Source: Rhizaria sp. SCN 62-66 (Eukaryota). Taken from it: DNA of 64,000 nucleotides. The stretch is taken from positions 1 to 64,000 of the forward strand of contig MEDY01000091.1 of NCBI GenBank assembly GCA_001724265.1. Reading direction: 5' to 3'. The position numbers were made by a program, and so were the translations under genes. The notes beneath the pieces are model-generated. The model saw only the letters and a list, made by a program, of their open reading frames with translations, made no database searches and was not told the origin of the DNA. Every line of letters starts with the position of its first letter. Position 1 is the first letter of the stretch. Below are positions 41,990 to 62,600 of this stretch, piece after piece.

Positions 41990-44900
41990 TCACCGCTTGC
42001 TGAAGTTGAAGAAGGTGATAGCAAAGAGCGTCACGATATGGGTACAAACCAAAAACAGAATCATCCACCCCACGGCAACGGAAGTGTTACCAAATTCGAA
42101 ACCAAGATATCTCGATACAACATCAGCCAGTGGCATTTGTGCGGGCTTTTGGTCGATGATGACGGTGACGAGCTGGCCGCACATCGGAAGTGGGCTACAT
42201 GTGCCGACCTGGGGCATCACAAGTGCCTCGGTACCGTGTGAGAGCGGGAGAATGCGAAAAAGCCACAGCCAACCGCGAGGAATCGACGGAAGCGGGTTGA
42301 TAAGTCCAGCGTACACAACAAATAAGCCGAAGCTCATGCCTTGAAGAATGGCAGCGATCGCCGTGTTGGGTGTAGAGTAAGCAAGGAGCTGGGCGAAAGC
42401 GATGTAAAGCATGCAGCACACCAGAGTGATGCCGTAGAACTTGAAAAAGAGCTCGGCGTCGCTAGAAAGGCCAACGAGAAAGTACGACGGGATTTGTGCC
42501 ACGAACGCAGTAAAGACGCACCACAGAATCTCGTTGATAAAGCCCGTGAAGGCCCACAGCGAAGGATGGTAAGTGCCGGATGCAATCTCACGGTACAGCA
42601 CAACGCGCGAGGACATGAAGTTAGGCAGCGCAGACGCGCCGTGAATGAGGGCACCAAACGTGACACTGACAGTGATGGCAGAAATCAGCGAGATGACGTC
42701 GGCTTGCGCGTACACCTTGCTGCGCAGATCGAAGTAGACGAGTCCGAAGAAAATGGACAGCACCGCCACAGCTATGATACGCGTGGTCATCATCGCAGGG
42801 TTGCGCCAGTAGCCGAGAAACGTGCGGCGTATCAGGCGCAGGAACGCCTCGCCGAATCCGGCACGGGCGCGGAAAACGAGTCCTTCACCGATCATCTCAG
42901 CACACTCGTTGTCGGGCTGAGGCGCCACGGTCGCCACAGCCGTGGCGCTGGCAACCGTTTTGGCAGAGCCGTTCTCCGGCATGGCCTCAATACGCGCAAT
43001 AACTGTGATTGCCTCGCTGCGCTGCGTCGAGGCAAGCCACGTGCTCGTCATGCGGGCGCGGAGCTCCGCCACATCGTCGTAGCGCCCGGCCTGCGAAGTG
43101 ACGACGGCGCCCTCCTCATTGCCGTAACCGTTTTCAGCGCATGGGCTAACACATTCGTCACCCTTAGCGCTGACCTGGCCCACACCCATCTCCTCGAGCA
43201 TCCATGACGCGGGGTTCGTCTGCGGCGGACACGCGGACGCGCGCGGCACGGACTCAAGGTAGGGAACAAAGATACGGCAACGGTGGCCGAGGTCGCCAAA
43301 GAACACTTGGTGGCCACCGGAGGCAAGCAGCACAAGACGGTCAAACAGGTAGAAGATTTCGGTGGACGGCTGGTGAATGGTGCAGATAACAGAACGGCCG
43401 GAGCGCGCGATACGGCGCACGACGCGCATAACGGTCTGCGCGGCGCGGGAGTCAAGGCCCGTGGTGGGCTCATCGAGAAACAGCACGGCAGGGTTGGCGA
43501 CGACCTCGCAACCGATGTTCACGCACTTGAGCTGCGACGGAGAGAGACCCAGCGTAGACCCGCCGCCGATGATGTGGTCCTTGATTGAGGTCAGCTCAAG
43601 CACTTCAAGGACCTCGTCGACGATCTGCTCCTTAATGTCAGCGGGGACGCAGCGCGGCAGACGGAGGTTTGCTGCAAAAAGCAGCGTCTCGCGCACAGTG
43701 TCAAAGGGGAACAGCGAATCGAACTGCTCAACGTAGCCGGTGAGAGCAGAAATGGCCTTGGCGTTTGCCGTATGTCCGTTCAGCGTGATCTTGCCCTCGA
43801 CAACACCCGAGTTCTTGCGACCGGCCAGCACGTCAAGCAGAGTGGTCTTGCCGGCGCCTGAAGCACCCATAAGCGCGGTCAGCTTGCCGGGCTCTGCGTA
43901 GCCCGTCACGCCGCGAAGCAGCGGGCGGTCCACAGTTGCGCCTTCGGAGTTCCTAACCTGCACCGTATAGTGAATATCGTTGAACGAGAGCCAGACAGGA
44001 GAAAATGGCAGCGTCTCACGCAGCGCACGCAGGTCGCCGCTAGAACTCTTGCGAGTTGGAGCAGGGGCGGGAGCAGGCGCCTTCTTGGCCAAGGCACATG
44101 AGGAGTCAGCGGCAGGGGCAGCGCCGTCCACAGCAACAACTGTACTGTCCGCCGGAGCAGGAGCAGAACCATCTTCGGGGATAGCAGCGGCGTCTGCCGC
44201 CGCGACCTCGCCATCCGCAGCGGGAGCAGCAACAGGGGTAGCGGTTTCTGCAGTCGCGATTGCAAGAGTGTCGGCATCGCCGTCGCCAGCGTACACGTCG
44301 TCCTCACAGCCGCATCCCTTATCGCCGTCGGTGGCGCTGCGGCGGGTGCCGCGAGTAGCCTCGTAGTAAGGGCGGATCATCATGCGCGAGTGCAAAAAGA
44401 GCAGCACGAAAGAGAGGGCAAAAAGATAGATCACGGCGTAGCCAATCCACTCACGGCCAATCTTCATATCGAGCATGTTGAGATAAGACTCACCAAGAGT
44501 GATACCGGTGTCGGTGATCGAATCGTACCGCGAAGAGAGAAACTCGTTGTTGACCATGGCACGAAGTGTCCACGCAAAGGGAGAGATCCAGAGCAGCCAG
44601 CTAATCCAGTCGGGCATGGCGGTCATCGACACGAAGAAACCACCAAGAAGCATGAGCGTCGACACCGTGGGACCGGCAATGGCTTGCGCTGCGGAAGCGT
44701 TGGTGAAGAGAGAGGTGAGTAACCTAAAAAAGATCGACATGTTGATTGATTGCGAAAGCAGTACTCCATAAAATGTGAAGAATGCTTCACCTGTCGGGTT
44801 GCAGTTAGAAAGGAAGTACGCCGAAATACTCATCAGGAAACTCTCGGCAGCAATGAGTGGAATTGCGACGATTGCGGCTGAGCACACGTACGACCATGTG

Positions 44901-46645
44901 GGGTAAAAACCCGACGCGGCCTGGCGGTACACAATGCGTGCATTCTCAACAGAAATCGGAAGTTCAACGACAGCACTGAACGCCACCTGTGAGATTATGA
45001 TGAGGAAATTCGCGCAACGCAAGAAGAAGTTCTCCGGCGAGATGTCGAAGAAGAACGAGCCAAAGATGAGGCCCATAAGAGCGCCCTGAATCAGGCGCGG
45101 GATAAAGAGAAGCTTGTTACGCGTCAGAGTCAGCGCCTCACGGCCGATCACGCGCTTGGCGACAGAGCCCAGTGAGCCGGAATAGCCAACGCTGTAAGAC
45201 GCGCGGGCCTCAGGCGTCGGCATCAGCGGCGGCAGCGGCTGTTGCGATGCATTATTTGCGGCAGTCAAAGGCGAGGACGGCAGTGGGGGCAGCACCGCAG
45301 TGGGGAACGACTGCTGCACAACAGGCCGGAGTACGGCGTTGAACGGGGAGGCCGCGAAGTGCTCAAGCATGCTAGTCGTGGTCAGGCACTCGGCGCTAGT
45401 GATTGTGAGCGGGCCCAGCGACGACTGGAGCATTGCTGCGGTGGGAGTTGCGGCGTCGCCACCCTCGGCGCGCAGCCGCGCAAGAGTGGCGCGGGGCTGG
45501 GACATGCAGTCGATGATAAAATCGCACACGTCAACGTCGGCGGGGCAGACGAAGCCGAGCGAAGCGAGATAAGGCAGGGCGTCTTGACGCGGCCCGTGGT
45601 ACACGACCTGCGCAGCGCGCAGCACAATAATTTCGTCAAACTGCGCAAACAGTCCGGGCGTGGGCTGTTGCGCGGTCGCAACGACGGAGCCGTTTGTGGC
45701 ACGTGTCCACTGGCGCAGCGAGCGAGTGATGTCCTCAGCAGTGGCTGTGTCGAGACCGTTGGTGTACTCGTCGAGGAAGATCGCGCGCGCGTCACCAACA
45801 AGCATCTCACCTACTGTCACGCGGCGCTTCTGGCCGCCGGAGATACCGCGGATCATGGCGTTGCCGATGACTGTGTCTTGGCACTACTCGAGGCCGAGGA
45901 GCTTAATCGCATTCGTCACGCGCTCAGGGTCAACAACAGCAGAGGTGCACTCGTGCGCAAAGCTGAGCGTCTCGCGCACCGTGAGCAGAGGCAAGTGCTC
46001 ATCGACCTACATAAGGGGTGTGAAAGGAGAAACGCATCATTGATTCGCGCATATTAGATTAGAAGTTAAAACGAAGGTCGATGATCGAACAGGTTGGACT
46101 TGAAGCATGCTGAGAGCGATATGGGAACGTACCTGATCAACGTAGTGGCACATGCGGCGCACGTTGCAGCCCTGTGCCTCCGCCTCGGCGCGGGAGAGAC
46201 CGTTGTAGCGCACACCGGAGTCGCCAGAGTCGCTGTCGATCGGCTGCTTCTGCGCCAGCGCCTTGAGCAGGGTCGTCTTACCGTGGCCGGGCGGGGCGAG
46301 GATGAGGACCATGGAGCCCGGGCGGATGCGGCCGGAGGCGGCAAGAAGGCGGTGGAAGTCTTGCTCTTTGCTAGACGCGCCGCAACTAAGAACTGAATCG
46401 AGTGCGGACTTGAAGGGCGAGAGGACGGTGACGATCTCGCCTGCGTTCGAGGGAACCTTGACAGTGACGTTGAGGTTGTGGTAGGCAATGGTCAGGTCAG
46501 TGGCAAATTTGGTAGGGGCAACTTCCACATCAGTGTTAACCTTAAGAGGGAACATAGCAACCATTTCTACGTCGTTAGACGTCGAGACAACGCGGTCTGG
46601 CGAGGCGGAAGACGTCTCCGCAGGGCCAGCTGTGGGGTCAAGCAT
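41990..46645 (-). CDS. Full-size ABCG/PDR transporter (NBD-TMD-NBD-TMD), ~1509 codons, interrupted by one in-frame TAG (45884-45886); recoded gene, young pseudogene or sequence error. Exons 46645-46133 and 46006-41990
   Basis: NBD1 [34 protein letters not shown]; NBD2 GASGAGKTT, GYVEQFD, LDEPTTGLD, TIHQPS; two multi-helix TMDs. Terminal stop is TGA. Confidence 0.92.
46007..46132 (-). other. Spliceosomal intron, 126 nt (ABCG gene)
   Basis: CAG|GTACGT ... TATGTAG|GT; phase 0; gives YVDQ|VDEHLPLLTVRETL. Confidence 0.92.
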
Positions 46646-47611: not shown

Positions 47612-50600
47612 TTAATGGAAATACTGACTGAGGTGCACGTACGCGCTCGCCTTGCGGAACGCGGACTCCTCCCTCTGCTTGCGCTCATCCGCATCGCTTT
47701 TCACAGCAACACCGTTCTTGGCCGCAGCTGCAGGCTTGCTATTGTTCGCAGCAGTCTTGTTGTGGAGCGCGATGAGCGCGTCACGCAGCGCGCGCGTCGC
47801 CGCAGCGGTTGCGGCGTCGCTGCCGACCTCCTCGGCTGCCAGGAACAGCTCCGTCGCCGTCGCGGCGCCGGCCACGGCGGCGGCCTTGGCTTCGCCGTGG
47901 CCGTGGTCGCCGCTGTCGCCGCTCTGCGCAGCGGCCGCGCTGGCGCCGGCGGCCGCGTCGTCGGTGCCGCGGCGACCAAGCGAAAGAAGAATGTCGCCGT
48001 ACACGCGCAGCAGCAGCGGGAGACGCGCCTCATCGTTCTCGAGCGAGAGCAGCGGCACGGCGTCAAGCAGCGCGGAGACCGACGCCGCGTCCGAGACACT
48101 GCTGGACTTGACCGCGGCGCTGGCGCTCGCAGTCGCAACAGGGCCCGTCGTGGTGGAGCGATCGATGTGGCTGCGGACGAGGTCGCGCAGGGCGGCAACG
48201 TCCACGCCGCCCACGCTCGCGGCCTTGCCGTTGCTTGCAGCGGCAGCCGCAGTGTCCGTGTAAGGCGACGGGCGCACGCTGGAGCCCGCGGCAGCGGTGT
48301 TGGCGAGCGCGGGCAGCGAGCGTGTGGCCCAGGCGGCGCTGTCATCGTAAACGCGACGCGTGCGCGCACTGGGGGGACGCGCGAGCGCGCCGCTCTGAGG
48401 CCGAGCAGCAGCAGCAGCAGCAGCACCAGCGGCAGCACCAGCGGGAGCAGCAGGCGCGGCATTGGCGCTGGCGGTGTTGGCGAGCCCAGACGTGCGGATG
48501 GTGGCCGCGAGCGTGGGTACAAGCGAGCAGCGCGACAGGAACAGCGCGAGCCGCTGCGCGTGCACGCCCACACCGGCGCCAGACGCGGCGCCAGTGGCGT
48601 TGGTGTCGGCGCTTGCGAGCGAGCCCATGAGGGCGCCTGCGGTCACGCCGCCGCTGGCTGTCTTGTTGCTGCTGCTGGCGTTGGTGTTGTTGGGCGTGAA
48701 GGTGAGCGCGCCGACGGCGCTGCCGTGCGCGACCTTGACGAGGTGGTCGCGCTGCTGCTCGTTGAGCGCGGCGAGCAGCAGCGCCAGGAACAGCAGCTGC
48801 GAGGGGCCCGTGGCCAGGCCGGGGTACAGCACGCGCGTCGCGCCGCACTCGGCCAGCGCCGCGGAGAGCACCTCGGACACGCTCGCGGCCCCGGGCGCGG
48901 CGCGGCGCTCGAGGTAGCTGTAGGTCGACGACTCGGTGCTTGCCGCGCAGCCGGCAGCAGCGGCGTCGCTGCTGCCGCTGCTGCCAGAGGTGAAAGCGAT
49001 GAGCTGGCGCATCTTATCCTCGGCCTGCTCAGCAGCCTCCTGCGGGCTCACGGCAGCAGCCGCGCTGGTCTGGCCGCCGCGAGCGGAAGCCTTGGGCGAC
49101 TTGTACTTGTCGCCAAGAAGGTACTTGAGGGGCTCGGCAGAGAACTTGCGCGCCGCGGCCTCGCTGCCGCAGCGGTACACGCGCTTGCAGTAGACAACGC
49201 ACCAGTACCACTCGCCGTTGCTGACGCTGCTGCCGTTGCCGGCGGCGGAGCTGTCGGCGACGGGCAGGCCCGTGGCCGCGAGCGCCAGCGTGCCGCGCGC
49301 GCGAGCGTTGTGCGCCGCCACGGGGCAGCGGCCCTGCAGCGCGAACACCGACACAGAGCCGGAGCCGCTAGAGCTGGAGCTGGAGCTGGAGCCGGTGCGG
49401 GACGCGGGGCGGGGGCTAGCAGCCGCGGGCGCGAGGCCGGGGGGCGGCGACGGCGCGACACGCGTGCGCGGGCTGCCGCTGCCGCTGCTGGCGTTGTAGC
49501 CGTTGGACAGTAGCAGCAGGCGCTGCCACTCGAGCAGCGTGAGGCGGCGCGGGCGGGCGGCGGCAGCGGGCAGCGCGGGAACCGCCTCGGCCAACGTCTC
49601 GAGCGACTTGAGGAACGCGGCCGCGCTCTCGCCGGCGGCCGCGCTGGACGCCGTGAGTGGGACCGCGGCGGCGTGCAGCTGCAGCGGGCGGCTGAGCTTG
49701 CGGAGCGCGTCCTTGGCGGCGTAGCGCCACGGGTTCGACAGCAGCGCGCACAGCGCGGCGGCGGAGCTGGCGCGGTAGATGGTGCCCGCGAGGTCGACGG
49801 CGTAGCACAGCGAGCCCGACGGCAGTAGCGCGCTGTTGGCGCCAGAGGCGGCGGCGGCGGCGCTCGCAGCCGTGAAAAGGTTGTCTTCGCCGGCGTCAGC
49901 GTCGTCGTAGCCGGCGCTGGCGGCGAGGCCCGAGTCGGCCTTGACGAGCTTGCCGTGGTCAGCCCACGCCACGGGGCAGTAGCGGCGCCACACGCCCTGC
50001 GCCTTGCCCACCACGCCAGTCTTGGCTGCGCTGCGGGCCGAGGCGCTGCCGCCGTGAGCGCTGACGTTGCCGCTGGCGCCGCTGCCGCTGAGCGCGAGGT
50101 GTGCGCACAGCGCGGGCGCACCCAGGGCCGTGGCGCGGAGATACGCGGCGCGGGCGAGCGCGCGCGAGGCGAGCGGCGGCATGCACGCGTCGAGCAGCGC
50201 CCACTGCGTGGCCGCGGCGTCGAGCACGAGCACGTCCTCGCCCGCGCTGCTGGCGACGACCGCGGTGATCGGGGCGCTCGCCGTCGCGGTCCCGGCGTTG
50301 ATCGACGCGTTGGAGGGCATGCGGGACACCGAGAGCAGCTTGGTTGCAGTACTAGCGGGGGCGGCAGCGCCGGTGTTGCGGGGCGCGTAGGCCGCGAGCG
50401 CCGCAGTGACGGCGGCGGTGACAGGCGAGGCCAGCGAGGGCACCAGCAGCGTCGTAGCGGCGTAGGCAGCGGCCGCGGCGGGCGTCGGCAGCACCGCAGC
50501 AGCGGCAGCAGCAGCGCGCGCCTTGGCGCGGGCCTGCTTGTCGAGGCTGGCGTTGCCGCCAGCAGCGACGGAGGCTTCGGTGTCGACGACGACCTTGGAG

Positions 50601-53600
50601 CCGACGAGCGTGAGCGCGGCGACCTGTTTGTTGCTCAGAGCCACGGGGCGCGCGTCCTCATAGTCCTCCTCCTCCTCGTCAGCGAAGCCCGCGTCGGCGT
50701 CGGCGTCGGCGTTCTTGCTGTCGCTGGCGATCTCGAGCCCGATGAGGTGCGCCGGATGGGCCCAGGCGCCCGCGGCGAGCGCGAGCCCAGTGCCGCTGGC
50801 GTCGATGCCGGAGACGCCGTACACAGCGTCCTCGCCGTCGGCGCCCGTGCCGTAGGGCAGGTACACGTCTTCGTAGACGTCCTCGCCCTCCTCGCCCACG
50901 CGCACCAGCCCCAGCGCCACAGCGACGGGGTCGCCGGCACCCGGGTCGGTCACGCCCTCGGGCAGCGCGGGGCGCACCACGGGCGGCAGCGGGGCCAGGA
51001 CGCTGCCCGCGACCGACGCCGCGGGGCGCGCGCGCGGACCGGAGCTCGCGGCGCCCGCACCGTCCTGCGGCTGGGCGAGGGGCAGGCGAGGCGTGCGCGC
51101 CCAGTAGGACAACGAGGCCGCGCGGTCCGTTGCGGCCAGCGCGCGCGCGGCGGCGAGCAGGCGGGCGCGGCGCAGGGCCGTGCAATCCGCACCGGCGGCC
51201 GAGAGGGCCTCGTTGAGCTGCAGCGATACGGTGAGCTGAGGCGCGACCGACAACGCCTGCAGCCAGGTCCACACCGACACCCCGGCGACGCCGCCCTTGA
51301 CAGCGGCGCGGGCGTTGCTTTCGTCGGCGGCGTTGTTGGCCGCGGCGTCGTCCGACTGAGAGTCGGCGCTGGCGTTGCCGCCAGCGTAGGGGCTCGAGGG
51401 CGAGTTGGAGGGCGGCGCGTCCAGCACCCAGCCGCGGAGACGGCACTCGGCGCTGGTGACGGCGGCGCGCAGAGAGAGCGCGATGAGCGCGGCAGAGGGC
51501 GACGCGCCCGCATCAAGCGTGGCGCGGAGTACAGTGCCGAGCACCGTGGGCGCCGCGGCCACAACGCCGCTCGCGGTCGTGCTGAGACTGCTGCCGGTGC
51601 TCGCGGGCGCGTTGTTGCCGTTGTTGGCGTAGAGCGAGGCCGAGGCGGCGGCCTTATGCAGCAGCGACGACAGAGGCAGCGGGAGGCGGACCGTGTTGCC
51701 GCGCGGGTGCGGCTGCGCGAGCGCGCGCACGTACTGGTCCGAGGCGCGCTGCATCACCGCGGCGGCGTTGGCCGCAGCGTTAGCCGCGCTGCTGCTGCCA
51801 CCCTGGTAGTTGAAGTAGTCGCCGCCGAACTCGACCTCGAGCTCAGCCTCAGCGCGACGGCTCGGCGAAGGCAGAGTGAACTGCGCCTTGTCGTGTTTCA
51901 TGCGCAGCAGGCTCTTGTTGTATACGGCCTTGTCAGTGATGTTCGCACGCGTGAGCACAGCGGTGTGGGCCTCAAACTCGGTGTGCTCGACGACGCTCGC
52001 AAGCTCGGCCTGCTCCTCGGCGCCGTCGCCATCCTCGGGCGCGGGCGCGGCAGACAGCGCCTCGGCGCGGGCGCGGCGCAGGCGCACCGCAGCGCGGCGG
52101 CGGCGGCGCTGCTCGCGCTGCGCGATCGCGGCCAGCGCGGCGCGGACCGCGGGCGACGTCGACAGCGGCGCGCACAGCGACGCGAGCGCGTCCGCGGCGG
52201 CGGCGCTGGTGACTGTGTGCGCGTCAAAGAGCGACGCCGCAGGGGCCGAGGCGCGCGCGGCGGCGGCGCGGACGGCGGAGACAGCGTCGAGCGACACGGC
52301 GGCAAGCTTGTCCGCGAGCGCGGCGGCGAGCGTGGTGCGGCCCGAGAGGGCGGGCCCAACGACGGCCGCGGTGAGTGGGGAGCGGGGCGACAGCACGCCA
52401 GAGATGGGCGTCGCCTCGAGGCTGGTGGCGCCGGCAGAGCCGCAGCCGCTGAGAGAGAGCGCGCCGGGCGTGGGCGCGATGGGGAGCGTGGCCGAGGACA
52501 GGAAGCGGTAGACGTCGGCCATGAACACGAGACGCGCGCGCGGGGAAGAGCAGAAAACGATGTTGTGGCCCCACATGACGGGGAAGGCGGAGCCCGAAGA
52601 CAGGCAGTCGGGCTGGTTCAGAAGCGGCACCAGCGAGCCCGACACCGCGAGCGCGTCGCTGTGCGCGCCGGAGCCCGTCGCGGCGGAAAAGCCAGGGAGG
52701 CCGCCGAGGCCGTTGTAACCGCCGACGGCGCCGCTGGCGCTGCCGTTGGCGTTGGCGGCGGACAGGGAGTAGCTGTCACCGCTGGCGCCGTAGCTGTGCG
52801 TGACCGCGGAGGCAACCATCGCGTACACGCCAGGGCCAGAGTAGGCGCCGCTGGCGCTGAGGCCGGTGACGTCATAGCCGGCCGCAAAGGTGCCCGCGGT
52901 GGCCGCGGTCGCCAACACGCCGCCCTTGCCGTGGGCGCAGGGGCCCGCGCCAGCGACGGCCTGGTTGACGAGCGCCTGCGCCGGGTTGGCCACGGCGGAG
53001 TGCGCGGCGGCCTTGAGACGCGTCTCGGCCAACGCGACGGGGCAGTGGGTGCCGAACTCACGCAGCGTCTTGGCGCCCAGGCGCAGCAGGCGCAGCGCCT
53101 CCTGCAGCGACAGCACGTGTGGCTTCACCAGCAGCGCGCGCGAGCGAGTCAGAAACGGCTGGCAGCGGCGGAACAAGCGCGAGGCGGCGCGGCGCACGCA
53201 CGTGGCCACGAAGAGCGGCGGCACGGCGAGCTGGTCGATGGTCTTGACCTGGTACAGCTTGTCGACGAGGTGCGCGTTGGTCGTGCTCACAATCGCCTTG
53301 CGGCTGCCGCGGCCGCTGACAGTCACCTGGCCGCCGCTGCGGCGGTCGCGCTCGTAGGCCGCGACGCTGGCGTGGTGCGTGTTGCCCAGCAGGCGCAGCG
53401 CGGGGAGGTCCTCCTCGGTCACCGTGGTGTCGAGCGTGGGCAGCGTCACGAGCTGCAGCGCGCTCAGTGCCGCCGTGAAGCCCTCGGTGTCCTGCACCGT
53501 GCGCGCGAACTCCTCGCGCAGCGCGGACTCCTGCGCCTTAACGGCCTCCAGCGCGACCTCGAAGGCCTTGGCGGAGAGCGCGCGGTGCTCGGCCGCGGTG

Positions 53601-56600
53601 AACATCGGCGCCATGGCGACGACAGAGCCCACGGCGCTGCTGCCCGCGCTCGCGCCGGCGTTGTTGGCGTGCTTGGGGTCAAGGTATTTGGAGAGCTCAG
53701 CGCGAAGCTTGGCGATGAGGCGCGTGGCAGAGACGATCTCGAGGTCGACAGTGTTGTCAGTGACAGCGGCACGCCGGGCCTTGCGCATGGCGCGGCCTGC
53801 ACCGCCCTCGTCGTCGCCGTCGTCGTTGTTGTCGCCGTCGAGCGAGTCGGTGTCGATGTCGCTGTTGTCAGCGCCATAGTCGTCGTTGTGCTCCTCGCCG
53901 TCGTCGTTATCAGCGGCGTTGGGGTCGATGGTCAGGCCGCCGTTGGCAGCGAACGCACGCTCGATCTTGCTCCGGGCTGCGGACTCGGTGACCAGAGACA
54001 GCCACCACGCGAGCTCGCGGTCCTTGGCGCTCATCACAACGCCACCGTCGTCGTCGCCGGCGTTGCCACCGTCGTCGTGCTGCGGCGCGCCATGTTCCTC
54101 CTCGTCGCTCTCGTCCTCGTCGTCATCGCCGTCCTCGCCGGTGCCGCTGCTGCCGCTCTTGCGCGCCGCAGCGGCCGCGGAGGCCAGCGCGGCGTTCTGC
54201 GCAGCAGCGATCGTGGCGGCGGCGTCCTTCTCGAGCAGCGCGAGGAGCGGCGGCGTGAGGTGGCCTGCCTCCTCCTCCGCAAGACTAGGGTCCTCACTCG
54301 CCTCCGCAGTGCCCACACCGAGATTCGCCGGCTCAGAGTCCTCTGCGGTGAGCGAAGAGACGATCACGGCGCGGCGGCGCGCGGCGGCACGGCTCTGCGC
54401 GGCGCGCTTGGCGGCCGACATCAGCACCTTGGCAGGGGCCAGCTTCGACAGCGCCGTGCGGCACTGCGCAATCGCGGCGGCCTCCTCCTTGCGCACGGCG
54501 TCGAGCTTCGAGAGCAGCGCGTCGATGGCGTCTTGGTGGGTCTTGATGACCGCCTTGCGGCTCATGCGCACGACGGGGACACCGTCAGCGCCCTGCTGCT
54601 GCAGCTGCTGAGCAGCGCTCGCGGCCGCGCTGGCGTTGTTATTGTTTTCGTCGTCGTCGTCCGAGTCGGAGTGGTCCGCGGCCTCCGCACGCGCCTTGCC
54701 GAGCTTGACGTTCTCGGCCACGACCGCGCGCAGGAACTCGCTGCGCTTGGTGTAGACGCCGCGCACAACGCCGCGCGCTTGGCGGATCACCTCGAGGCGC
54801 TCCATGCGGGCCTGCGCGCGCGCCATCTCACTGCGCTTGAGCTCGCAGTAGCGCGCCTTGGCCTTGGCAGCGAGCGCGGTGGCACGGGCCTTAAACTCGG
54901 TGCGCAGCAGGTCGCGCTGCAGACGCACCACGGCCTCGCCCTCCTGCACGTCAAGCGGCGCCACAAGGTGCGGCAGCGTGTCGGGGTGCGCCGAGAGCAC
55001 CGAGGCGATGACCGAGAGCAGGGAGTCCGAGTAGAGGTCGACCTCAAGCACCCAGCCGGACTGCTTGTTGGTGGCGACGTCCAGCGCGTCCTCGCTCTGC
55101 AGCACGGCGATGGCCTCCTTCGCGGTGTCGACGACGCTCAACGCGGTCGAAGCATCGCTGCCGTTGCTGCCCTGGGTGAGGGCGCGCATCGCGGCGTACT
55201 TGAGGTTGAGCCGCCTCGCGCGCTGCTGGTCATCGGTGAGCGTGGGCTGGCCGCCAACAAGCACAGCCTCGGCGACGGCGTTCTCAATGTCAGTGTGCGA
55301 CACCCAGTCGCTGTCGTGCAGCAGCTCCGCGAGCGCAGTGTGCAGCTTCGGCGCCGGCGCAGGGACCGCGGGCAGGCCGCGGAGCTTGACCTCGGAGCCG
55401 TGCTGAGGCTTGGCAAGGCGCTCGCGGACGCGGATGGCGCGCGCGATGCAGCGCAGCTTGGCCTCGTCGTCCATCTCGGCCAGCACGGCTGCGGGCACGG
55501 GCTCGAAGCCGTAAGTCGACGATATCGTCTCAAACGATAGCAGCTCAAACGCAGGTGCCGCGGCGGCAGCGGCAGCAGCGGCGGCAGCAGCGGCCTTATC
55601 CTTGCCGTGAGCGTTGGCCGAAGCAACACAGTCGCCATTGGTGGGCGTGGGTGCGCGCTTCTTGGGGATAATGGCGTCAGCGCTCTCGATCCCGAGCCCG
55701 ACGGCAAGGCGGTTGGCGAGCACGCGCGCGGCGTAGACCTTGCTCTGCATCTGCTCGAGCACGACGGCGACGCGCGGGTGGATCTCGGGCAGCCCCGCCT
55801 CGACGCGCTCACGCTCGGCGGCCTCGGTGAAGCGCAGCAGCGTGGCCTCGGCCTCGGCCGCGTCGGCCACTGCGTCGGCGTGCGCGCTGCGCGCGTGCGC
55901 GTCCACGGCGGCCTGCACAGTACGCAGCAGGCCCGCGACACGGGTCGACGCGGGGACCGTGCCCAGCGCCTCGGCGCCCAGGGCGGCGGCCTTAGCGACC
56001 GCGGCGGCGGTGCTTGAGTTCTCGCCAGCGCTCGAAGACGCCGCGGAGGCCTGCTGCTGCTGCACGTCGCGGAGCGCGATGGTAGCGGCAGCGTGCGTGG
56101 CGACAGCAAGCAGGAAGCCGAGCGCGGTGGAGACCTCGCGGCCCGGCGCGTCGGCGACCTGCGACGACACGTCCTCGGGGTCCTGCTCCTGCTCCGGCTC
56201 CTCGCCGTCGGCGTGCGCGTCCTGCTCGTCGGCCGCAAAGCTCTCGCCCTCGCCGTGGCCGGCGCCGGAGGTAGAGGGCTTCTGGTAGAGGTGCGCAAAC
56301 TGGGTGCGGAGCTCGTTGCTGTCCTCGGCCTCCTCCTTCTCGGCGGCGGCGCGCTCCTCTTCGTCGTCCGAGTACGCGCCTTCCTCCTCGTCGCCGCGCA
56401 CGTCCTCAGCCGCGTACCCGTCGTTGTGGTACATCTGCTCCTCAGCGTCGCTGTCGGCCTCCTCGCCCGTCTCGCGGCGCCGCTGCCGGTCCGCGCGGCG
56501 TTGCTCCTGGCGCTCGGCAGCGCGGCGCGCGCGCTTCGTCTCGCGGCGCACGGCCGCACGGGCGGCGCGGGCCGCGGCGCGCTCGTCGTGCGCAGTGCGA

Positions 56601-59600
56601 TACGCGTCGTGCTGTTGGCGCAGCTTGCCGCGGCACGCGCGGCGCTCGGTGCGCGCGCTGTGGCGCGCGGAGTCACGCGCCGCGAGGGCCGTGGTAACGA
56701 GCGTGGTCAGGCGCGGGAGCAGCTCGTCCGAGAGCTTGATGTGGCGCGTGAGCCCGAGCTGCGCGGTGAGCGCGCGGGCCAAGGAGGACTTGCCGGAGGC
56801 GACGGGGCCGACGATCATGGCGCGCGGCGCGGGGAGCAGCGCGAGCGACTCGGGCAGCGCGCGGTGGGCGCCCGCAAGCGCGGCGGCGGCGTTGGGGCCA
56901 AAGGCCGGGTTGCGAGAGTCGAGCGTGTGGTAGCGCTGCGGGTTGGCCAGGAAGGCGGCCACAGCGGCGTCGGAGAAGAGCGAGTACACGGCGCTCGCGA
57001 AGCGGATCTTGAGCGTGGGCTTGCCGGGCACGAGCAGCCCGGAGTCGACGAGCGAGACGGGGCAAAAGCACGTGGTGCCGAACTGCAGCTGGCGCAGCGC
57101 GGGCACGTCGAGAGCGTGCGTAGGCAGCGCCGCGACCTCGGCCGGAACGACCACGACGCTGCCGCCGTGGGCGCCTGAGCCGGAGCCGGAGCCGGAGGAG
57201 CTGCCGCTGGAGCTGGTGGCGGCGGCGGCGCACTGGGAGAGGTACTCTTCGGTGACGGGGATGACCGTGGGCAGGCGCGAGCGGCGGTGGCGGTGGAACG
57301 GGTCCACGGCGCAGTGCACGCGGTCGAACGTGGCCGCGAAGGACGAGTGCAGCCCGGCGTCGATGACCGTGTACGCGTGCCCGTGGTCGTGAAGGTGCGC
57401 CTCGAGGTGGCGCCAGGCCACGTCGTGGAACTCGACAGAGAGCTCACATAGGTGGTCCTCGTCCTTAGTCAGCTTCCCGCCGACAGCGGCAGCGGCAGCG
57501 GCGGCGCTGGCGGTGTTGTCGTCGCCAGCGTCCTTCTGCTCGCTGTCGATCACGGCCGCGGCGGCGGCGCTGCTATAGGCGAGGCTGCGCGCAGTCTGCT
57601 GGCGCTGGCGCATGTACACGCCCTCGGGCTCGTCCAGCACCAACGCCACGGTCGCGTTCACGGCCACGCCCGCGAGTGAGAGGAGGCGCAGCAGCTCGTC
57701 GTAAGCGGCGCCAGAGGCGATGCCCGCGCCGTCAACGACGACGCGGCGACCGCGCAGCGCGCTGCCCCAGACGCGGGGTACGGCGGCGCTGGCGGGGGCC
57801 TTGGGGGCGGCCTCGTCGCTCGCGATCGTGCCGTCGTCGGCGCCGTTGCTCTCGGCGTTGGCGTCAACGGCAGCGTCGATCTCGGCGCTCTCCCAAGCCT
57901 GCAGCGTCTCGAGCGTGACCGACACGAAGCCGTGCAGCGCGGCGAGGCGGCGCGCGACGGCGGTCTTGCCGGCCAGCGGGCCGCCCAGCAGCACCACGGT
58001 GTAGCTGCTCGGCAGCGCGGGGGGCGCCAGCGTGTAGCAGTCCGGATTCGCGTTGAACTTGCGCAGCGCTGCGCGCGACGAGAGGTAGTAGCACGCGCCG
58101 CGGTAGACGCACGTGAGAGCTGCGTCGCCCTTGACGAGCGCGTCGTGGTCGCGCAGCGCCACGGGGCAGTAGCGCTCGAAGGCCGAGAACCAGACGTGCG
58201 CGGCGGCGGGGGCGTCGCCGGGCACGTCGTGCACGCGCAGCGGCAGCGGAAGCGGCGCCGTGGTGGGCACTGTGGCGCCGTTGGCGTCCTGCACCGACGT
58301 AGGTGAGTAGCCCGTGTTGAGCGGCAGGTCGCGGTGCAGGTGCGATACCGCGGGCGGCGGCACACACACGCGCGCGATCGCGTCGGGCACGTGCGGCGAC
58401 GAGAATGCCGCCACGGGCGCCGCGAGCAGTTGCGTCTGCTGCGCCACGTCAAGCGCGGCCGTCAGCGCAACGGAGCCGGCACCGATGGCGCCACTGCTCA
58501 CGCCCGTGGGCGCGTTGGCGTCGCGGTGGAAGGCGAAGCCGAGTCCGGAGGACTGGGCGTCGACGTCCGACAGCAGCAGCGCGTGCGCAGTCGCGGGCTC
58601 GAGCTCGTTCAACACTGCCGTGACCGCGGCGCGCACGACGTTGCCGCCGCCGGCGTCGCCATCCGCGCTGTTGTTGTTGTTGTTGGACTCGGCGAGCGAC
58701 TGCTGCACGGCGGCGAGCACGGCGTCGGCGGCGTCGTCGTCGGCCGTGGTAACGGAACGCAGCGAGCGCAGGCGGCGCGCCTCCTCGGAGTCGGCCTCGT
58801 ACTCGCGCACGAACACGGAGCATACGTTGTCGTTGACGTCCGCGGCGCTGGGCAGCACGCCAGAGTCGGCGTCGCGCTCCAGCGTGAGCGGGTACAGCGC
58901 CGCGGCGGAGGCCAGCTCCACGCGGCGCAGAGCCGCGGACAGCGGCAGCGGGATGGCGCTGGCGACATCGTGCGGCGCCGCAGCCTCGCTCGAGGCGGGG
59001 ACCGCGATGGCGCCATGAGGCGCGCCGTGGTCGACGGCGTACTCGTCGTGATATTCGTCGTGGTGCGCGCCGCTCTTCTTGGCCGAGTGAGCCTGGTGGC
59101 CGTGGGCCGGAGCCGCGGCGGGCGGCGCCTCGTCGAAGCCGACGGGCACGGCAAGGAGCTTGGCGACCGACCGCACAACGGGCTTGCGGCCCGCGGCCGC
59201 GGTCGCGCGGTACAGCAGCACGTGCGCGGCGGAGCGGAGCACGTCGACCTCGGTGTCCTGCGCGGACAGGTGCACGATCTGCATCGCGCCGGGCAGCTGC
59301 GGCAGCGCCAGCGAGTGGTTGTAGCGGCCGTCGCGCAGCACCTGGCCCGCGGTCACCACCACGGGCGGCACGGGGAAAGAGGAAACCAACGTCTTGAGCG
59401 CCGGCTCCGTCTCCTCGGCGTAGAAGTTCAGCCGCGCGAGCTGTGCCGCGGGGGCCTCGATGCTGACGGAGCGCGCGTATGCGAGCGAGAGCAGGCCCAG
59501 GTCAGTGGTGGCAACCGTGGCCGTGGGCGCCCAGCGCTGGTCCCACAGCGCGGGCGTGGGCACGAGGCCCTCGGCGACGGGGATCCACTGCGGCACCGTG

Positions 59601-62600
59601 GCGGCGTCGAGGCGCGCCACGACGTCGCCCGACAGCAGGCGGTGGCGGCGGCGCGTGTACGTCTCTGAGTCGAAGTCGATCGCGCCGGAGCCGTGCTCGT
59701 CGTTGCCGCCATCGCCGTGCTCAGCGTCGGCGTCGGCGTCGGCGTCGGCATCGTCACCGTGCTCGTTGTCGCCGTGCTGGCCGTGCGCGGCGTCGTCGTC
59801 GCTGTGGTCGCCGGCGTCGGACACGTCGTCGTCGTTGTCGCTCGCGTCGGCGGCGTCCTCCTCCTCGAAGTCTGTGTCGTCGCCCTCGCTCAGCGCGTCG
59901 AACGCGTTGTTGAACACATCCAGACCGGCCGCGCGCGCGCGCTGCTCGCGCTTGCTCAGCTTCGCACCGGGGCCGCGCGGCGGGCGCAGGTTCACGGGCT
60001 TCTTGCCGTGCTTGCCCTTGCCGGGGTTGTACTTAGAGTTGTCGATGGGCTCGCCGGTGTTGGTGTCGAGCAGACCGCTGCCGAAGTCGTAGCCGCCGAA
60101 CGCTCCGGCAGCGGCGGCCTCGGCGTCATCTTCGTGGGCGAACTCGCCGCCGCTGTTGCTGCTGCCGCGCACCTTGGGCAGGCGCAGCGGGGCGGGGCGG
60201 TGCAGCGCGGCGAGCTCGGCCAGCGGGTGCAGCACCGCGGTGATCTGCGTGAGCACGCGGCGCAGCACGGCGGTCTTGCTGTTGTCGCCCTCGGCGACCT
60301 CGCCGTCCTCCTCGCCCGCGGGGCCCGCGAGACCCGCGCTGGCGGTGGAGCGGCCGGACATAGGACGCGAGCCAGAGCCCGCGGCAGAGGCGCCCGAACG
60401 CGGGCGGCTGCCGCTGTGCGCGGCGTCGCCAGCGCTGGCGTGGAACTGGTCCTCCTCCTCGTCGCCGTGCTCGTGCCCGTGCTCGTGGGCGCCCTCGTCG
60501 CCGTCCTTGTTCTCGTCCTCGGCGTCGTCGGCACCCTCGGGCGCGGTGAGGCCCAGCTCGACGCTTTCATCGCGGTGCGTCACCTGCGCGACGCGCACGC
60601 GCTTGTCCAGACAGCGCACGCCGTCGACGAGCGCGTAGGGCACCGTCGCCGTGTCGGCCACGTAGCATTGCACCTCGCGCGCCCAGTTGCCCTCGCGCTG
60701 CGCCTTGTCGATGATGGCGCGCAGCACGGCGCGGTCCAGCCGCGTCGCGCCAAAGCGCTGGTGGTTGAGCAGCTTCGACGACACCACGGGGCCCGGGGCG
60801 GCGCGGTGGCCGCCCTCGTCGTCGTCTTCGTTGCGGTCCTCCTCGTCGTCGTCCTCGGTGGTGCTGGCGTTGCTGTGGTTCGGGACAGAGTCCTCGTCGC
60901 CGTCGCCGTAGGCCGCGATGAAGTCGGGGGTGAGCGCGACGCCGTCCTCGGCCATCTCGTCCTCGTCGCCGTAGCCGTCGTCGAGCTCCTCCTCCTCCTC
61001 GTCCTCGTCGTAGTCCTCGTCCTCGTCCTCATCTTCGTGGAGACCAGCGCCGCGCTGCTCGATGCGCTGCGCGCGCTTGAGCGCCTTGATGCGGCGCTGT
61101 GCGGCGCGCTCGAGCTTGTTCCGCGCGCGGCGCAGGCGCAGCGCTGTGAGCACCTTGCGCACCTGCACGCGCGCGAGCAGGCGCGCGGCGGCCGGGAGCG
61201 CCGTCGCGTCAGGCTCGGCGAGCTCGAAGCCCGCCAAGTCGCGGCCCACGCGCGCGCGCTGGTCCGAACCCTTGAGCAGCGCGTCCTCGTCCTGCAGCGA
61301 CAGCGCAAAGACGACCTGCGGCGGCCACACGCCCTGCAGCGCGCCCTCGCGCTCACACTCCTCCTCCAGCCCGCCCGCGGCCGCCGTGCGCGCGTTGGCG
61401 CTGCTCGTGGCGGCGATAAGGTCGGCGACCGTGTCGGCCGCGGCCGAGGGCGTGGGGGCGAGCGTGGCGAGCAGCGCCGGGGAGAGCGGGAAGTCGCCCA
61501 GGACGAAGCCGTGGAAGCGGACCTGCGGCGAGTAGAGGCGGTAGCGCAGCAGCGCAAGCATGTGCGCCGGGGACAGCGCGCCGCCCTCGAAGAGCGTGTC
61601 GACGGCGCGCATGACGCCGTCCCACTTGGACTCGGGACCCTCGGACTCGGCCGCGTTGCCGTTGCCGTCAGGGCTAGGCTCGGCGCCCGAGGCGCTGGAG
61701 GACGCCGAGGCCGGAGGGTGCGCGAGCGCGTAGGCGATCACGTCGTCGGCCGTAATGTGCACGATACCGTAGAGCACCTGCAGCGAGCGGGCCAGCGCGT
61801 CGCAGCCCGCGCCCGGCTTGCCGACCAGCCACACCGACAGCGGCGCCGGCGCCGAGGCCGCGTGCAACAGCGCCGCGTCCGCAGTCACGCCGCGGGCCGC
61901 CGCGCTCTGCACCGCGCCTGAGACGGCGACTGCGCCGTCCTTGGTGGCGGGCAGGAGGGCCTCGATGGTGTTGGTAAGCAGAGCGGGGATGCGCGCGGCA
62001 AAGTTCTCGCTGGCAACGTCCGCGTCAGCGGCGGCGCTGGCGCTGGCGCTGGCGTTGGCGGGGGCGCCGACCGGAAGCGTGGCGCCGGCGGGGGACACGA
62101 GCGTGCTGTAAGGGGGCAGCAGGTCGGTGTAGACCATCTCGCTCGCACTCACGCTCGCGGCAGCAGCGCCGGCGCCCACAGCGGCGGCACCGGACGCGGT
62201 CGCGAGGGCGATGCGCTCAGCCTTCTTAGCCAGCGCGGCGGCGCGGGAGACCGCGTCGCCGCTCTCCGCAGCAGCGGCGGCGGCGCTCTGGCCGGCGCCG
62301 AAGTGGCCGTGCGCGTCGCCGTCGTGCTCGCCGTCGTTCTCGTCGCCGTTGTTCGTGCTCGCCGTGTGCTTGTTGACGAACTCGACCGTCGACACGTAGT
62401 CGTCGTGGTCAGCACTGCAGTCGTCGCCGCCGTCGCCGCCCGCGTTGGCGTTGTCGTTGGCGACGCTCTCCAGCTCGGCGGCCTGCGCTTCGAGCGACAG
62501 CGCGCGGTCGACGTCGCCGTCCTCGCGCGCAAGCCCGGCCTGTGCACGCAGGGCCTCGACGCGCGCGCGTGCGCTGTCGCGGGCGGCGCGCGAGAAGGCC

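Follow-up and report, generated by a model that had tools for sequence, protein, structure and literature searches.

A probable variant nuclear genetic code in a rhizarian, with UAG read as glutamate

In the genome of Rhizaria sp. SCN 62-66, UAG likely encodes glutamate through a dedicated tRNA, with UAA and UGA as the stops of the nuclear code, and it appears very probable from the sequences that some or all of the UAG decoding yields Glu. An initial annotation of the window, the 64,000-nucleotide stretch of DNA presented above, had proposed from one TAG within an ABC transporter gene that UAG could be a rare sense codon. This proposal is now extended well beyond that gene: TAG, unlike TAA and TGA, recurs in frame genome-wide and is nearly absent from gene ends, and the genome contains a tRNA gene with the anticodon CUA and an eRF1 altered in its domain 1. 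The best reading is a recoding at a rare, early stage. A duplicate of tRNA-Glu(CUC) would have gained the anticodon CUA by a one-base change, would be charged by the glutamyl-tRNA synthetase and would pair with UAG, not with UAA. The altered eRF1 would recognise UAG poorly, letting this tRNA win, while the old UAG terminators would mostly have been replaced and new UAGs would be slowly entering genes. The rarity of UAG and its avoidance in the genes of highest GC3 are as expected of a recently captured, slowly decoded codon.

In-frame TAG in the ABCG gene and across the genome

The ABCG gene lies on the minus strand of the window, with the following features:

46133..46645, minus strand: exon 1, 171 codons, with the ATG at 46645
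46274..46294, minus strand: Walker A of NBD1 (PPGHGKT), upstream of the TAG
46007..46132, minus strand: the sole intron, 126 nt, GTACGT...TAG (GT-AG), 44% GC
41990..46006, minus strand: exon 2, 1,339 codons, covering the remaining NBD1, TMD1, NBD2 and TMD2 of a full-size PDR-type transporter
45884..45886, minus strand: in-frame TAG at codon 212 (CTA on the plus strand), Glu under the proposed code; seen also in contigs of three other studies and compared with homologues
45830..45844, minus strand: signature of NBD1 (ISGGQ), located 14 codons past the TAG
41990..41992, minus strand: true terminator, TGA

The joined exons make up 1,510 codons for a 1,509-aa product, and the only stops in them are TAG 212 and the terminal TGA, in agreement with the initial description of an otherwise intact gene; the protein sequence around the TAG also matches that description. 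The signature and Walker B of NBD1 and all the remainder of the full PDR-type ABCG are encoded downstream of the TAG; since Walker A lies upstream and the signature downstream, termination at this codon would split NBD1. With UAG read as Glu, the gene would be intact with Glu212. The NBD1 coding sequence (window 46294-45600, minus strand) looks partly degenerate, with QQP replacing HQP, and NBD2 is canonical (Walker A/B, H-loop).

The ABCG TAG is identical in contigs from three other studies (X4 record 7, X5 record 14 and X7 record 23), none of them marked as the source, a contig-level comparison in which rare alleles and heterozygosity are beyond resolution. Elsewhere in the X4 contig there are differences from the window, so that it represents another strain. 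The TAG is not an assembly error. The X5 contig carrying the TAG ends 2 nt beyond the exon edge, like a spliced read, X5 being probably DNA and its other pieces being also loose-ended; among the pieces listed for the polyA run X8, none spans the ABCG TAG.

An ordinary nonsense allele, a young pseudogene or an assembly error under the standard code would need only one substitution from GAG at ABCG, in a family with many paralogues. We consider this extremely improbable in view of the identical TAG in three other studies, of internal stops that are nearly all TAG, of the single-copy eRF1 and Thg1 genes that are also affected, of the existence of a CUA tRNA and of the lack of TAG at gene ends. 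Removal or change of the TAG in the mRNA, by a micro-intron or by RNA editing, has in our view an equally negligible probability. Several lone TAGs in profile matches are intron acceptors, but such cases were excluded from the counts by the 20 coding codons required on each side. At the ABCG site, all 35 of the frame-keeping GT/GC-AG candidate introns (20-130 nt) over the TAG also remove conserved residues, which bears out the earlier remark on the cost of splicing it out. At the Thg1 and eRF1 sites, the alignments with homologues are ungapped, and neither a micro-intron nor editing would explain the CUA tRNA.

A coding model trained on the genome itself, with the three stops treated alike, was applied to 49 ten-kb stretches and to the window, a codon being exon-internal when 20 or more codons separated it from both ends of its segment; all loci read amount to about 0.97 Mb of the 34.9 Mb genome, overlaps included. 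Among 140,577 codons, the exon-internal stops were 30 TAG, 0 TAA and 1 TGA, the lone TGA being a terminator by eye; two of the 30 TAGs (ABCG and eRF1) had been identified before the count, and eRF1 and the tRNA had been the reason for picking two of the stretches. TAG was present in frame in 18 of the 50 stretches and in 23 of 196 long coding segments. With 885 GAA and 4,712 GAG in the sample, it represents about 0.5% of Glu codons, or about 0.2 per 1,000 codons, and it is 4-fold rarer at GC3 >= 0.87 (2 in 31,614 codons vs 27 in 108,041). One uninterrupted open frame exceeding 5,460 codons (window 47612-64000, minus strand; GC3 0.90) has no TAG and runs off the window. Profile searches gave nine kinase matches with a lone TAG, five loci having an exon-internal TAG and the others having it at or near intron acceptors. 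The lone TAG of a DEAD-box match was rejected as a sense codon, being at or near an intron acceptor, and none of the 22 AAA and 43 DEAD matches contained an exon-internal TAG.

In the window itself, a recount gave 7 TGA, 6 TAA and 0 TAG for the 13 terminal stops, as first reported, and a wider tally, of the kind that the initial annotation had called for, follows the same trend. Over all loci read, a small sample of the genome, the first stop at 122 gene ends is TAA in 61 cases, TGA in 57 (118/122 for both) and TAG in four, none of which is a clear terminator: three continue in plausible sequence by eye, and the fourth is a TAG-TAA tandem (L135:2664-2669, plus strand) that fits a sense or a stop reading. 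A TAG is also located 11 codons ahead of the TGA at a convergent gene end (L163, minus strand). The tandem and this last TAG are possibly relics of old UAG terminators. As controls, TAG is the stop reached first in 12 of 98 introns or intron-like cases, compared with 4 of 122 gene ends (Fisher p=0.017), and non-coding DNA has TAG as 22% of its stop triplets. A tally of Ras prenylation ends was left out, its regular expression having also matched wrong frames; the real-looking Rab ends are TAA or TGA.

The residue at TAG sites and the tRNA with anticodon CUA

The alignment of in-frame TAGs with conserved homologues, suggested by the initial annotation, gave Glu at the three sites of Thg1, eRF1 and ABCG. 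The TAG of Thg1 occupies the asterisk of G-x-S-D-*-F-S-F, within a near-invariant Ser-Asp-Glu motif whose Glu is presumably part of the metal site. The homologue search used a query with the TAG read as Gln, and the column of 150 homologues contains 147 Glu, 2 Lys, one uncovered position and no Gln or Leu; the PDB sequences have Glu in 4/4. The eRF1 TAG is at human position 107, where 120 homologues display 109 Glu, 10 Asp and 1 Val. In ABCG, 16 homologues among the 20 closest have Glu, some of these 20 being possibly paralogues from the same genome, and so do 10 of 11 homologues at 53-73% identity. Over all 119 homologues, the ABCG column is dominated by plant Ile and Val (I43, V27, E25, N9, L1, Q0). 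It had first been described as variable, which holds for the more distant PDR proteins of plants and oomycetes, and as giving no access to the amino acid, which does not stand in view of the closer homologues. At other TAG sites, the PDB homologues have Asp or Ser (UBE2J) and Ala or Lys (CaMK). Standard gene calling truncates TAG-bearing proteins, for example the database products of ABCG and Thg1 (P0243 and P0480), which start downstream of the TAG.

Summed over 10 in-domain TAG sites, the Pfam bits are highest for Glu (715.6), followed by Gln (709.6), Lys (709.5) and Ser (702.4), with Tyr (694.2), Leu (690.3) and Trp (687.1) lower on the same scale. Glu is the best residue at six sites, Lys at three and Gln at one; strongly conserved sites are few in this sample, and Thg1 contributes 3.9 of the 6 bits by which Glu leads Gln, the lead over Gln or Lys being about 2 bits without it. 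A neighbour test independent of homology, run on 44 TAG sites, ranked Leu at the top and did not pick Glu (-9.5). In its calibration, random GAA/GAG samples were called Glu in 176-183 of 200 draws and pure-Gln samples were called Gln in 199 of 200. The TAG set fits a mixture of single-step source codons (median -8.3), and neither pure Glu nor pure Gln. We infer that TAG in unconstrained regions arises from many neighbour codons and is tolerated, and that at constrained sites it replaces GAG.

The search for a tRNA with a CUA anticodon, also put forward at the outset, revealed one gene with a body of tRNA-Glu type. Obtained by a pattern search of the genome (G000:C84; L054:1490-1562, minus strand), this gene has a bit score of 58 with the Rfam tRNA model, compared with 58.3 and 56.5 for tRNA-Glu of the same genome. 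It is identical to tRNA-Glu(CUC) at 47 of 73 positions, with an alignment score of 47, the other tRNAs seen scoring at most 37 and those for Gln 25-27. The two have in common the TCCCA start of the acceptor stem and the ACGGG/CCCGT T-stem. The variable loop of the CUA tRNA is short, and its gene is followed by an oligo-T terminator; minimum-free-energy folding of the tRNA (z -1.5) was uninformative. A relaxed pattern admitting Gln-type T-stems, in a search blind to tRNAs with unusual arms and to intron-containing genes whose T-stem is non-GG, yielded neither a further CUA tRNA nor any UUA tRNA, and tRNA-Glu(CUC) has at least eight matches for the one CUA gene. A pyrrolysine system was considered and rejected on the basis of the tRNA: the 'Pyl' label of ARAGORN comes from the anticodon, and the body is a standard cloverleaf nearest to tRNA-Glu. 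Among the other tRNA genes, those for Ala (L022-L025, L062) begin with GTG in both the AGC and CGC isoacceptors, the usual start of tRNA-Ala being GGG.

Assignment of UAG to a residue other than Glu, be it Gln (the Iotanema code), Lys or Leu (the code of the rhizarian exLh), is very improbable in our opinion. Gln and Lys are just 6 bits below Glu over the Pfam sites, some TAGs are within poly-Gln tracts and Leu comes first in the neighbour test, but Gln is absent from the Thg1 (0/150) and ABCG (0/119) columns, where Leu is limited to a single ABCG homologue, and the CUA tRNA combines an acceptor stem and a T-arm of Glu type with the lack of a long variable arm. Moreover, the neighbour test did not call the TAG set Gln, as it did almost every pure-Gln sample. 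The exLh code was rejected on the 25 bits separating Leu from Glu and on the short variable arm of the tRNA, and the Iotanema code on the columns devoid of Gln and on the tRNA score (25-27 for Gln, 47 for Glu). Thg1, eRF1 and the tRNA body all point to Glu, in contrast with the precedents for Leu and Gln cited by the initial annotation.

The release factor and possible partial termination

Only one eRF1 gene was found, the other gene with PF03463 looking like pelota. The in-frame TAG of eRF1 (L051:1593-1595, minus strand; G000:C63) immediately precedes an AAA, which is rare in this exon (1 of 16 Lys codons), and the chance of a TAG in a gene of this length is about 9% at the overall rate. The public contig L206 is identical to this locus, TAG included; it is genomic and perhaps not independent. 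A scan of public contigs with the locus revealed no DNA of a close relative. Some unrelated public eRF1 contigs (L219, L232-L236) display in-frame stops at Gln columns, probably from ciliate-type codes.

Inspection of domain 1, another of the checks listed initially, uncovered the changes T32S, G57S and T58K, which hit the GTS and TASNIKS motifs at columns with Thr in 120/120, Gly in 120/120 and Thr in 119/120 homologues, respectively. L124M and K130Q also depart from near-invariant columns, and NIKS, E55, S70 and YxCxxxF are intact. According to PMC5304391, Thr32 bonds the G of UAG, and T58K also occurs in standard-code ciliates (Fig. S2 of this source, where the column alignment is possibly off). 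Because of this occurrence, the eRF1 changes are, at the level of sequence, consistent with a reading of UAG as Glu and not diagnostic of it. In the closest relative of this eRF1, P0006 (84% identical), T58K is present as well, Thr32 and Gly57 are unchanged, and the TAG column is occupied by Val; this sequence could help to order the steps of the code change.

An ambiguous UAG, giving Glu via the CUA tRNA while a sizeable share of UAGs would still be terminated by eRF1 and a minority of genes would end there, appears distinctly unlikely. It would fit with a single CUA tRNA gene facing at least eight tRNA-Glu(CUC) matches, with a TAG that is very rare and rarer still at high GC3, with the tandem at L135 and the TAG ahead of TGA at L163, and with the motifs retained in eRF1. 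Internal TAG is followed by a purine at +4 in 16 of 44 cases, compared with 59% for GAG (p=0.003), and true stops favour G at +4 (79/118), but this bias is not significant when compared with all NNG codons (p=0.18-0.28). Furthermore, no unambiguous TAG terminator is present at the 122 gene ends, and the essential eRF1 and Thg1 need read-through. A possible, if unlikely, scenario is an early stop-codon capture, in which one suppressor tRNA-Glu(CUA) would compete with a weakened eRF1 and the TAG in the eRF1 gene would act as a feedback valve stabilising the ambiguity, more eRF1 leading to truncation of its own synthesis and less eRF1 leaving the tRNA to read through.

The organism and comparison with known codes

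The GC-rich genome (34.9 Mb, 714 contigs) is present in bioreactor and wastewater runs, and its sequences place the organism as a rhizarian, probably a cercozoan. The best named matches of its Cdc48 are from the chlorarachniophytes Lotharella and Amorphochlora (73-74% identity), and a tree built by FastTree from 59 of 120 Cdc48 matches grouped the query in a clade with these two genera and many unnamed sequences. No polyubiquitin junction was seen in a search for the cercozoan insertion. The genome of Rosculus vilicus differs in composition, with 37.7% GC (PMC10770858). The 18S rRNA gene found at L200:1501-5945 (G000:C706) spans 4.4 kb, is AT-rich and divergent, and contains several large insertions resembling group I introns by eye; its host may differ.

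Glutamate as the meaning of UAG, with UAA and UGA as stops, would probably constitute a new variant nuclear code in a rhizarian, identified together with its tRNA. A literature search, with most subscription journals outside its scope, found no report of nuclear UAG=Glu with these two stops. If true, this would be the second UAG-only change in Rhizaria, with a different residue and with both the tRNA and the release factor visible. It could teach how eRF1 drops UAG alone, which is relevant to amber suppression in eukaryotes. UAG being far rarer than in published cases, the organism is also a candidate for testing codon capture against an ambiguous intermediate.

Among the published systems, the UAG-only nuclear codes covered by PMC5304391 and PMC11687900 assign Leu, Gln or Ser. 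In exLh (Sainouroidea, Rhizaria; PMC5304391), UAG alone is likewise reassigned and genes end with UAA or UGA, but UAG stands for Leu and is abundant (384 in 71 genes), in contrast with Glu and a frequency near 0.2 per 1,000 codons in the present genome. A CUA tRNA was predicted for exLh, whereas it is found as a gene here, and the eRF1 change is L69A in exLh (PMC5304391) and T32S, G57S and T58K here. Iotanema spirale (UAG=Gln; PMC5304391) also decouples UAG from UAA, is GC3-rich and has an altered eRF1 Thr32 (T32G), with UAG reaching about 8% of Gln codons, compared with about 0.5% of Glu codons here. Among phyllopharyngean ciliates (UAG=Leu or Gln; PMC11687900), 78-91% of genes bear UAG, vs 23 of 196 coding segments in this genome. 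Scotinosphaera (UAG=Ser; PMC11687900) shares the decoupling of UAG from UAA, with another residue and in another lineage.

Glu is the meaning of UAG in Oligohymenophorea sp. PL0344 (PMC10553269), through CUA tRNAs derived from tRNA-Glu as proposed here, and in peritrichs and Blastocrithidia, where UAR=Glu and a tRNA-Glu(CUA) is described in the latter (PMC11687900, PMC12153298). These codes were rejected for the present genome, which has no internal TAA in 140,577 codons, TAA at 61 of 122 gene ends and no UUA tRNA found by the patterns used. PL0344 reads UAA as Lys, stops only at UGA and has 10 CUA tRNA genes (PMC10553269), whereas UAA ends half of the genes here and one CUA gene was found; in peritrichs and Blastocrithidia, UAA is also Glu, with a UUA tRNA (PMC11687900, PMC12153298). 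As the known UAG=Glu codes also reassign UAA, the organism described here could show a single-step intermediate.
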